The position numbers and the translations under genes are program-made. A model generated the notes under the pieces. The model ran no database searches, was not told where the DNA came from, and saw only the letters and a program-made list of their open reading frames with translations. A stretch of DNA of 64,000 nucleotides from Saccostrea echinata (taxonomy: Eukaryota). The stretch is taken from positions 1,860,001 to 1,924,000 of the forward strand of contig NW_026889803.1 of the NCBI RefSeq assembly GCF_033153115.1. The letters run 5' to 3'. Numbering within the stretch: the stretch's first letter is position 1; every line of letters starts with the position of its first letter. Positions 1,511 to 2,358 of this stretch are shown piece by piece.

Positions 1511-1641
1511 CTCCTTTCATATTTGTTTGCCAGAAAGAATTATTCTGTAGATTTTAGTTACTGCTATTATCTTTTGACATACATGTATACAAATTATGCT
1601 ATAGCACTATTCATAAAAATGTTTCTGTTTCATTTTAGACA

Positions 1642-2358
1642 ATGCCTCTAACCAAGCTCACACCTAGAAAAGAGTCAAAATGTCCCATGTGTCGATTTAA
1701 GACTTATGACATGGCGGAAATGACTAGGCACATCACCGAATGTGGGTTGAAACACATTGAAAGGAAATTTTCTTGTGATAGAGAGGATTGCAACTTTACT
1801 ACTAATAAAATGGGAAATCTTACAAGACATAAGAAGAGACATATTGAGCAGGAGGGACAGAATGATGATGTTCGACAAATCACATCTTCGCATTACAAGA
1901 ATCAGAAAAGTGACAAGGAAACAGCAAGTGAGAGTTCACCATCTGCGGATTGCAATGATAAGAATAGTACCTCACAGGATGCTGGTGAAGGAAAGGCAAT
2001 CTCGGACGAGGAGTGGATAGATGCCGACCCAGGGGATCTGCGAAGCATATTAGGCGATGTTTCTGAGACTGATAATGAACGGGAGGAGGATCCAAATGCA
2101 AAAAAAGTTAATGAAGATGCAAATATTGGAAGAATCTTTCGGAAACCTACAACTCCAATGCCGATATTTGCTCCTAAGCGCAAGGACCCCCTTGTTGCAT
2201 CTTCTGGACTTCCAGCACGCCCTTTAGTAAGAAAACCTCAGGTTTGTGAAACTGGTACACAAACAGAAAGGAAGATTCGAAGAGTAGAATGGACAATTAC
2301 CAAGTGGAGAGAAGGTGAAAGGGACTTTGAGCACATTGTGATGATTGAAGAAGATTGA
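1642..2358 (+). CDS. Retrotransposon accessory ORF, 238 aa, with two zinc fingers (C2HC + C2H2), an acidic disordered middle and a TQT motif
   Basis: CPMC-x12-H-x3-C and C-x4-C-x12-H-x3-H. It lies between the integrase stop and the PPT/LTR. The ATG is preceded by the acceptor-like gtttctgtttcattttAG (AG 1637-1638). Confidence 0.8.
   Translation: MPLTKLTPRKESKCPMCRFKTYDMAEMTRHITECGLKHIERKFSCDREDCNFTTNKMGNLTRHKKRHIEQEGQNDDVRQITSSHYKNQKSDKETASESSPSADCNDKNSTSQDAGEGKAISDEEWIDADPGDLRSILGDVSETDNEREEDPNAKKVNEDANIGRIFRKPTTPMPIFAPKRKDPLVASSGLPARPLVRKPQVCETGTQTERKIRRVEWTITKWREGERDFEHIVMIEED

Follow-up and report, generated by a model that had tools for sequence, protein, structure and literature searches.

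A conserved zinc-finger accessory gene of oyster Gypsy retrotransposons with a histone H3-like N-terminus and an LC8-type motif

How animal LTR retrotransposons remain expressed despite host silencing is largely open, the known element-encoded counter-measures being mainly those of plant DNA transposons and of one nematode element. The locus described here raises this question through an additional gene: what might a third reading frame, placed between the integrase and the 3' LTR of a Gypsy element of the oyster Saccostrea echinata, do for its element? The window, i.e. the whole stretch of 64,000 nucleotides that was analyzed, starts inside the integrase frame, which is open to its end at 1510 and forms the last part of a single gag-pol frame of 1660 amino acids whose start lies upstream of the window. 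When the adjoining 10 kb were included (locus L040), a complete element was recovered, consisting of 5' LTR (just upstream of the window), primer site, gag-pol, the third frame (hereafter ORF3), purine tract and 3' LTR; a domain search of L040 found gag, protease, RT, RNase H and integrase in Gypsy/Ty3 order. The two LTRs, of 621 bp each and with TG...CA ends, show 1 difference between them, and an ATAT target duplication is present on both sides of the element. This copy is a young Gypsy insertion. Its primer site is complementary, with 1 mismatch in this copy, to the 3' ends of tRNA-Leu genes of the same genome, and tRNA-Leu was found in three of the four loci examined for a primer-site match. 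The atypical purine tract is kept in 28 of 38 LTR-bearing loci. Features of the element, all on the forward strand, are as follows.

1..1510, +, 3' end of gag-pol (integrase zinc finger, core and C-terminal domain); the frame begins before the window
1621..1638, +, predicted splice acceptor, pyrimidine tract plus TAG
1642..2358, +, ORF3, accessory protein of 238 amino acids
1645..1671, +, H3-tail-like N-terminus, P1 L2 T3 K4 L5 T6 P7 R8 K9 (Met removed)
1681..1743, +, zinc finger 1, C-x2-C-x12-H-x3-C, pLDDT above 90
1774..1842, +, zinc finger 2, classical C2H2, with conserved K/R(-1), N/D(+3) and R(+6) on the recognition helix
2014..2040, +, conserved acidic-linker motif W-x3-D-P-G-x-L (of 42 members, 37 keep W, 39 D, 37 P and 39 G)
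2140..2184, +, R-K-x-T-x-P motif (of 42 members, 40 keep R, 39 K, 40 T and 41 P) followed by basic PKRK, a candidate nuclear signal
2236..2265, +, LC8-type motif ending in TQT, residues 199-208
2281..2352, +, C-terminal beta-hairpin in the predicted structure, residues 214-237
2569..2581, +, polypurine tract, atypical, conserved in the clade
2582..3202, +, 3' LTR, 621 bp, TG...CA, followed by ATAT at 3203-3206
2665..2672, +, TATA box of the LTR
2751..2759, +, predicted splice donor GAG/GTAACT, best of the 39 GT sites in the LTR
2867..3016, +, five tandem 30-bp units within the LTR

Outside the element, two 418-bp inverted repeats (window 3327-3744 and 6988-7405), 99% complementary and 3.2 kb apart, likely represent a DNA transposon adjoining the 3' LTR. 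Arrays of ca. 166-bp units (36268-39756 and 52720-53836) and of ca. 146-bp units (12783-14060 and 22559-23566), which share flanking blocks, were also found; we take them to resemble the satellite-bearing repeats common in oysters.

ORF3 had been described in an earlier note, prepared from the sequence alone, as an intact non-env gene between integrase and purine tract, and this description was borne out. The frame runs uninterrupted from 1642 to 2358 behind the open integrase frame. The best 19-residue Kyte-Doolittle mean of the protein is 0.36, and none of 42 family members reaches 1.6; since no member has a hydrophobic segment, ORF3 is not an env. The C2HC finger, C2H2 finger, acidic linker, PKRK and VCETGTQTE listed in that note are all present. 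The structure predicted by AlphaFold2 contains two confident fingers, a disordered middle part and a hairpin at the C-terminus. In an alignment of the 42 members the mean column identity is 20%, with K5, T7, C14, C17 and H67 invariant and Q207 and T208 almost so. The near-invariant R-K-x-T-x-P motif (window 2140-2157) resembles H3 R8-K9-S10-T11 and, on this likeness, could be a second modification site. Fold searches with ORF3 returned weak zinc-finger matches only (no E under 0.001, best Z 4.7), the C-terminal hairpin being scarcely covered by them, and searches of a protein atlas gave unnamed or generic C2H2 clusters only, with recognition below the mark.

The two fingers differ in what they suggest. 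On the helix of finger 2, K/R occupies position -1 in 37, N/D position +3 in 36 and R position +6 in 41 of the 42 members, and its closest solved relatives are DNA-binding fingers such as those of CTCF. To judge from these residues ORF3 probably binds DNA through finger 2. When a motif shared by the LTRs was sought as a target of the fingers, TGAAG was found in 7 of 12 LTRs, not above shuffles. For finger 1 the earlier note had proposed a likeness to ubiquitin-binding UBZ fingers. These need an acidic residue (Asp) two places after the His ligand, a column in which the four commonest letters among the 42 members are V (15), L (8), I (6) and T (5), with no Asp. Among the 25 of 48 Pfam matches listed the UBZ family is absent, and UBZ structures were weak matches among many other fingers. 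The ubiquitin-binding reading is weak.

The distribution of ORF3 was analyzed within the same genome, where a search produced 65 matches. In 38 of 39 ORF3-match loci, each fetched with 10 kb around the match, a gag-pol match on the same strand precedes ORF3, in most cases with 45-50% identity to the gag-pol of the window element; the exception, L074, carries an ORF3 fragment with a stop and has no gag-pol match within 10 kb. Homologues with 30-99% identity occupy the same position in many families, and ORF3 follows the integrase in 14 families, all of one integrase clade of this genome. A sample of 40 loci was then chosen by integrase likeness and not by ORF3. Among the 20 closer loci, 15 had ORF3 (several of them broken) and 5 lacked it, and none of the 20 more distant loci had it. 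In a quick integrase tree of 67 loci (midpoint root, SH-aLRT support only, restricted to loci with one segment of more than 230 residues), the 42 ORF3-bearing rows and the 5 losses formed one branch with an SH-aLRT of 99, the losses being nested inside families. The copies without ORF3 (L095, L098, L099, L100 and L106) belong to five families, and in L100 and L106 a deletion extends from just before the acceptor to before the purine tract. ORF3 is thus dispensable in cis, and one further copy has an open gag-pol with a frameshifted ORF3; both observations fit action in trans.

Among the five open copies of the window family, dN/dS ranges from 0.04 to 0.28 (10 non-independent pairs). Close pairs of other families gave 0.13-1.14, from small counts and usually above the integrase, and between subfamilies (55-59% identity) dS is saturated with a dN of 0.33-0.42. 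Judged by these substitution patterns, ORF3 is under purifying selection. It is an accessory gene encoded by the element. The earlier note had named absence from related copies, neutral evolution and capture of a host gene as outcomes contrary to its reading; copies were collected and dN/dS computed, and none of these was found.

Beyond this genome, a profile search of 1.84 billion cluster representatives yielded 181 matches, and 50 of the proteins examined have the first finger and the linker motif; a word-based profile search gave three distant members, two of them already known. Members occur in Saccostrea, Crassostrea/Magallana, Ostrea, Pinctada, Pecten, Argopecten, Mizuhopecten, Ylistrum and Mytilus, usually as several paralogues, and the homologues of oysters, pearl oyster, scallops and mussel are recorded as 'uncharacterized' proteins. 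The nearest named protein, 97% identical, comes from a Saccostrea record. The genomic context in other genomes was seen only indirectly, through records in which the end of an integrase is joined to ORF3 (P0006, P0008 and P0185). Three members (P0070, P0120 and P0204) are annotated as host genes, 'RE1-silencing transcription factor-like' or 'HIVEP3-like'. No member was found in the viral contigs searched, and the match at a single locus of a metagenome scan (L128) was a chance agreement of 8 residues in a phage-like gene.

The strongest functional clue to ORF3, absent from the earlier note, is its N-terminus, which is like that of histone H3. The tails of 40 members (two near-duplicates dropped) were counted unaligned from the first Met and compared with H3 of the same genome (L082). 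In register with H3 residues 1-9, identity was found at T3 in 32, K4 in 37, T6 in 39, R8 in 29 and K9 in 28 of the 40, while other H3 positions are mostly replaced (R2 kept in 0, Q5 in 1, A7 in 2 and S10 in 1). Of the 40 members, 38 have V, A, P or T at position 1; the first Met is presumably removed, so that one of these residues would come first in the mature protein. K4 and T6 (columns K5 and T7 of the 42-row alignment) are as invariant as the zinc ligands, and T3, K4 and T6 are found in 14 of 14 families of this genome. One member, P0130, is identical to H3 1-9 at 8 of 9 positions. Between the Met and the first Cys the spacing ranges from 11 to 23 among members, so that the tail motif is fixed to the N-terminus and not to the finger. 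Pro occupies position 7 in 24 of 40, and T-P-R-K is also a CDK-type site.

The likeness was noticed by eye and the numerical tests that follow were run afterwards. With a matrix built from the family, H3 1-9 scored 15.3 and the next H3 9-mer -2.2, a value of 15.3 being reached by 15-19 of 100,000 shuffles. When the most H3-like members were left out, or only the 14 families of this genome were used, H3 1-9 scored 8.8-9.5, attained by 99-184 of 100,000 shuffles, by 147-171 of 200,000 random peptides of tail composition and by 1-2 of 69,029 background 9-mers; six apparent 'non-family' matches of the first background test turned out to be family members. A 12-residue profile of 15 starts from this genome, run against 177,635 PDB sequences, gave one match up to E 10, which was histone H3 residues 1-10 at E 3.7, not significant alone. 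Functional mimicry of H3 by the ORF3 tail appears, from this conservation, moderately probable. Among host proteins, H3 tail mimics (H3TM) are defined by iM-Z1-R2-X3-K4, which requires Arg2 (definition as given in the available text of PMC8166343). In ORF3 the small residue after Met is present in 38 of 40 members, Lys at position 4 in 37 of 40 and Arg2 in none, and ORF3 is therefore not an H3TM member as defined. Its tail may nevertheless work like an H3TM, toward readers that do not need Arg2.

A second conserved trait lies near the C-terminus. The TQT sequence had been taken in the earlier note for an anchor of the dynein light chain LC8, and two lines of evidence agree with this. Of 42 members, 38 have a (T/V/I/S)QT site past residue 100, where shuffling would lead one to expect 6.9, and 13 have two or more sites; the stretch is disordered in the predicted structure (pLDDT under 50 at residues 201-206). 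When two copies of residues 185-238 were modelled with two copies of LC8 of the same genome (L080), the score was 0.81 versus 0.01 for the best of three controls, with at least 96% contact agreement between runs, a partner pLDDT of at least 67 and residues 199-208 placed in the LC8 groove. In a microbial calibration, 51 of 78 solved pairs attained the pass mark, as did 2 of 108 mismatched ones. Since TQT-LC8 complexes have already been solved, the model may have passed by reproducing known structures. LC8 is thus predicted by the model to dock on ORF3. As LC8 is described mainly as a dimerization hub, including for nuclear silencing factors (PMC7919418, in the text available), dimerization is favoured over transport, and the trafficking reading of the motif is weak.

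The earlier note had further proposed that ORF3 is made from a spliced subgenomic RNA, and the signals it pointed to recur across the clade. The acceptor AG (1637-1638) ends 3 nt before the ATG; of 113 other upstream ATGs, 2 are preceded by a site of equal or greater strength. A pyrimidine tract and YAG lie 0-13 nt before the ATG in 12 of 14 families (one representative each), and in 8 of those 12 at most 2 of about 110-140 other ATGs score as well. Of the remaining two representatives, one is a decayed copy with siblings that retain the site, and the other falls just below the cut-off. The first intron base of the LTR donor is 2754, and the TATA box at 2665 lies 89 nt upstream of it. By approximate scoring weights, the best donor of the whole LTR falls 55-125 nt past the TATA box in 9 of 12 LTRs. 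An identical donor is intact in the 5' LTR (L040 position 302), and this is predicted to be the working copy. In no family does the predicted first exon contain an ATG in frame with ORF3; that of the window family has two out-of-frame ATGs in weak context, and those of the other 11 families have none. AATAAA hexamers lie 16-45 nt past the donor in 5 of 12 families (window 2773-2782), and the donor may have the further effect of repressing premature polyadenylation in the 5' LTR.

Transcript traces of this splice were sought in three sparse contig sets from runs guessed to be RNA. They contained no joint from the donor to 1639, the acceptor and the ATG being uncovered, and carry no information on expression; two contigs lie inside ORF3 and one, of run X1, continues through the donor unspliced. 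A further contig, of run X2, follows the LTR without differences to the exact donor base and continues with 165 unrelated letters (depth 3, RNA status guessed), which suggests use of the LTR donor joined to something other than the ORF3 acceptor. As this evidence is thin, we only infer splicing to ORF3, and consider it very likely that the protein is translated from a spliced RNA. Traces of spliced copies in the genome were looked for among 9 matches to the acceptor region, none of which starts at 1639. L008, which starts at the ATG, has a break explained by a short-homology deletion from the integrase with a small duplication, not by a splice, and seven other copy pairs have internal deletions without GT-AG ends at the ORF3 acceptor.

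From these traits the following mechanism is proposed. The LTR would yield full-length RNA and a spliced RNA in which a short LTR exon is joined to the acceptor before the ATG, and the latter would be translated into ORF3, with removal of the first Met. With the acceptor immediately before the ATG, the protein would be certain to have the free N-terminus on which H3 readers depend. LC8 would join two ORF3 chains at their C-termini, finger 2 would bind DNA, and the two tails would be bound or modified by host readers or enzymes of H3K4/K9, acting as decoy or as recruiter at the element. The outcome would be that the element's own chromatin is kept transcribable, a direction in favour of the element that we infer. 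That the whole chain holds, i.e. that ORF3 is a spliced, LC8-dimerized, DNA-binding mimic of the H3 tail that regulates the chromatin of its own element, is for us an evenly balanced proposition. More tentative is a bolder version, to which we lean somewhat less: a clade-wide anti-silencing gene, in which the LC8-dimerized finger protein presents two R2-less H3 tails and the splice exists to expose them, which predates the divergence of oysters, scallops and mussels or has spread among them, and which is one of several regulators in the env slot of bivalve Gypsy elements. The 'element-encoded regulator' of the earlier note stands in part: the conserved and selected gene, the conserved splice signals and the LC8-type motif hold, while its ubiquitin and trafficking aspects are weak.

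Other accounts of the gene have to be weighed against H3 mimicry in favour of the element. Capture of a neutral host gene fragment, or a chance frame, could appeal to L074, the 1 of 39 loci without gag-pol; the clade-wide position, saturated dS, low dN/dS and many paralogues per named genome contradict it, and we consider it already refuted. A more serious contender, though an improbable one, is that the tail only converges on a basic, Thr-rich kinase or import signal and that the protein is a plain zinc-finger transactivator. The replaced positions (R2, Q5 and A7) and the frequent Pro7 speak for such a signal. Against it, T3, K4 and T6 persist in members without Pro7, 37 of 40 members keep the register relative to the N-terminus, and P0130 matches H3 1-9 at all but one position. 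The mimicry could also be turned against the element. Host factors that combine an H3-like N-terminus with zinc fingers include the NuRD-binding SALL, FOG and BCL11 proteins and the LSD1-binding SNAG proteins. ORF3 might similarly bring a repressive complex to its own LTR, capping copy number or timing expression, as a self-limiting repressor. The recognition helix is conserved, ORF3-less copies with near-identical LTRs exist, which shows the gene to be unneeded in cis, and NuRD is bound by host proteins through N-termini that are H3-like and unmethylated (PMC8166343); all NuRD-type motifs described in the available text of that source have Arg2, however, which ORF3 never has, and the direction of the effect is not readable from sequence. 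We regard self-limitation as unlikely.

Two accounts place the action of ORF3 elsewhere. As the LTR donor and the ORF3 acceptor bracket gag-pol, the latter would be an intron, and ORF3 might be an RNA factor like Rev or CERV, with fingers that bind unspliced RNA so as to aid its export or to adjust the balance of splicing, and with a basic N-terminus that serves as RNA-binding or nuclear signal. C2H2 fingers can bind RNA, and both splice sites are conserved within the genomic RNA. The nematode element Cer1 meets the same problem by means of CERV, made from a spliced RNA (PMC10309623, as described in the text available). Such a role leaves unexplained why K4 and T6 are invariant at a fixed distance from the N-terminus while that to the first Cys ranges so widely, and a sequence link to CERV was searched for and none found; it appears distinctly unlikely. 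Still less probable is an adaptor for trafficking or integration, in which LC8 links dynein to particles or to the integration complex, or tail and fingers tether the integrase to chromatin rich in H3 readers. The TQT motif and the LC8 model agree with it, as does P0185, a natural record in which pol runs in frame into ORF3. Against it, such a fusion is an exception and deprives ORF3 of its free N-terminus, and LC8 serves mostly as a dimerization hub, with nuclear clients too (PMC7919418, same scope).

Whichever role applies, this transposon gene probably accounts for many of the zinc-finger genes that bivalve annotations call 'uncharacterized' or 'REST-like'. ORF3 is a small, expressible protein with two testable handles, the K4/T6 tail and the TQT anchor, and with dozens of natural variants. 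If the H3-mimicry reading is true, transposons would join viruses as bearers of histone mimics, and the consistent loss of Arg2 would hint at which H3 readers the element wants or avoids.

Several other Gypsy elements of this genome also carry a frame 3' of the integrase. A sister clade (L108, L109, L111, L112, L114, L115, L117, L122, L123, L124 and L127) has a different one, of 125-333 amino acids, with an acidic start of the M-D/E-x-L-D type, two fingers, a DPG motif and, in most cases, a site resembling an acceptor at the ATG; coiled ends and xQT-like motifs occur in three members of greater length. These frames show no H3-like start, and the four tested gave no strong Pfam match. Two other families carry a frame with a BTB_2 domain (L113:7463-8044 and L116:2011-3009, E about 1e-14), and two unrelated frames encode 247 amino acids with two TQT motifs at the end (L119:2038-2778) and 559 amino acids with an N-terminal C2H2 finger (L120:753-2429). 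Since sister clades have other regulator-like frames, accessory finger genes in the 3' position form, in themselves, a recurrent theme.

The window element very probably belongs to one of MolGy1-18, clades of the same superfamily described from the same hosts and defined by RT/RNaseH only (PMC6238403, PMC8556966 and PMC9679248); in the main texts of these surveys of mollusc and annelid Gypsy elements the words 'ORF' and 'zinc' do not occur. In the available text of the Troyka paper the additions named are the chromodomain and the envelope only. No description of ORF3 or of an H3 mimic in a retrotransposon was found in the literature searched, largely the main texts of open-access papers, and an earlier Repbase record of ORF3 is possible.

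Known systems, as their accessible texts describe them, share traits with ORF3. CERV of the C. elegans element Cer1 (PMC10309623) is likewise a non-env accessory protein of a Gypsy/Ty3 element, made from a spliced RNA and provided with a nuclear signal and a Cys-rich finger. It differs in having 517 amino acids from five exons that share the gag frame and in exporting genomic RNA; that account reports neither an H3-like tail nor an LC8 motif, and no homology to ORF3 was detected. The short sORF1 and sORF2 of the Drosophila MDG1 group (PMC11952523) are also non-env accessory frames of animal Gypsy elements, sORF2 being like a membrane fusogen in contrast to ORF3, which lacks a hydrophobic segment. 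VANC of plant DNA transposons (PMC12859917) is an element-encoded regulator of its own chromatin with tandem repeats as possible targets, but it belongs to Arabidopsis DNA transposons, is unrelated in sequence and is described there without histone mimicry. Closest to the tail are the H3TM proteins VRK1, HIVEP1, PCLAF and BCL11B (PMC8166343), with a small residue after Met (P, V and A being tolerated), Lys4 at a free N-terminus and often zinc fingers; these are host genes defined by Arg2, whereas ORF3 is encoded by an element, lacks Arg2 and adds T3, T6, R8 and K9. Among parasites, influenza NS1, adenovirus protein VII and bracovirus H4 (PMC6028506) exemplify the copying of an H3 motif to engage chromatin factors, although the motif of NS1 is C-terminal and of 4 residues; 'transposon' and 'retrotransposon' do not occur in the main text of that review. 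Panoramix in SFiNX (PMC7919418) has one or two TQT/TQV sites beside a structured element through which LC8 dimerizes a nuclear chromatin factor, but there the motif belongs to a host silencing factor and here to the transposon. Thus, according to these texts, non-env accessory genes (Cer1, MDG1), anti-silencers (plant DNA transposons) and histone mimics (viruses, host factors) are already known; what is new in ORF3 is the combination of an H3-like tail with an LC8 anchor.
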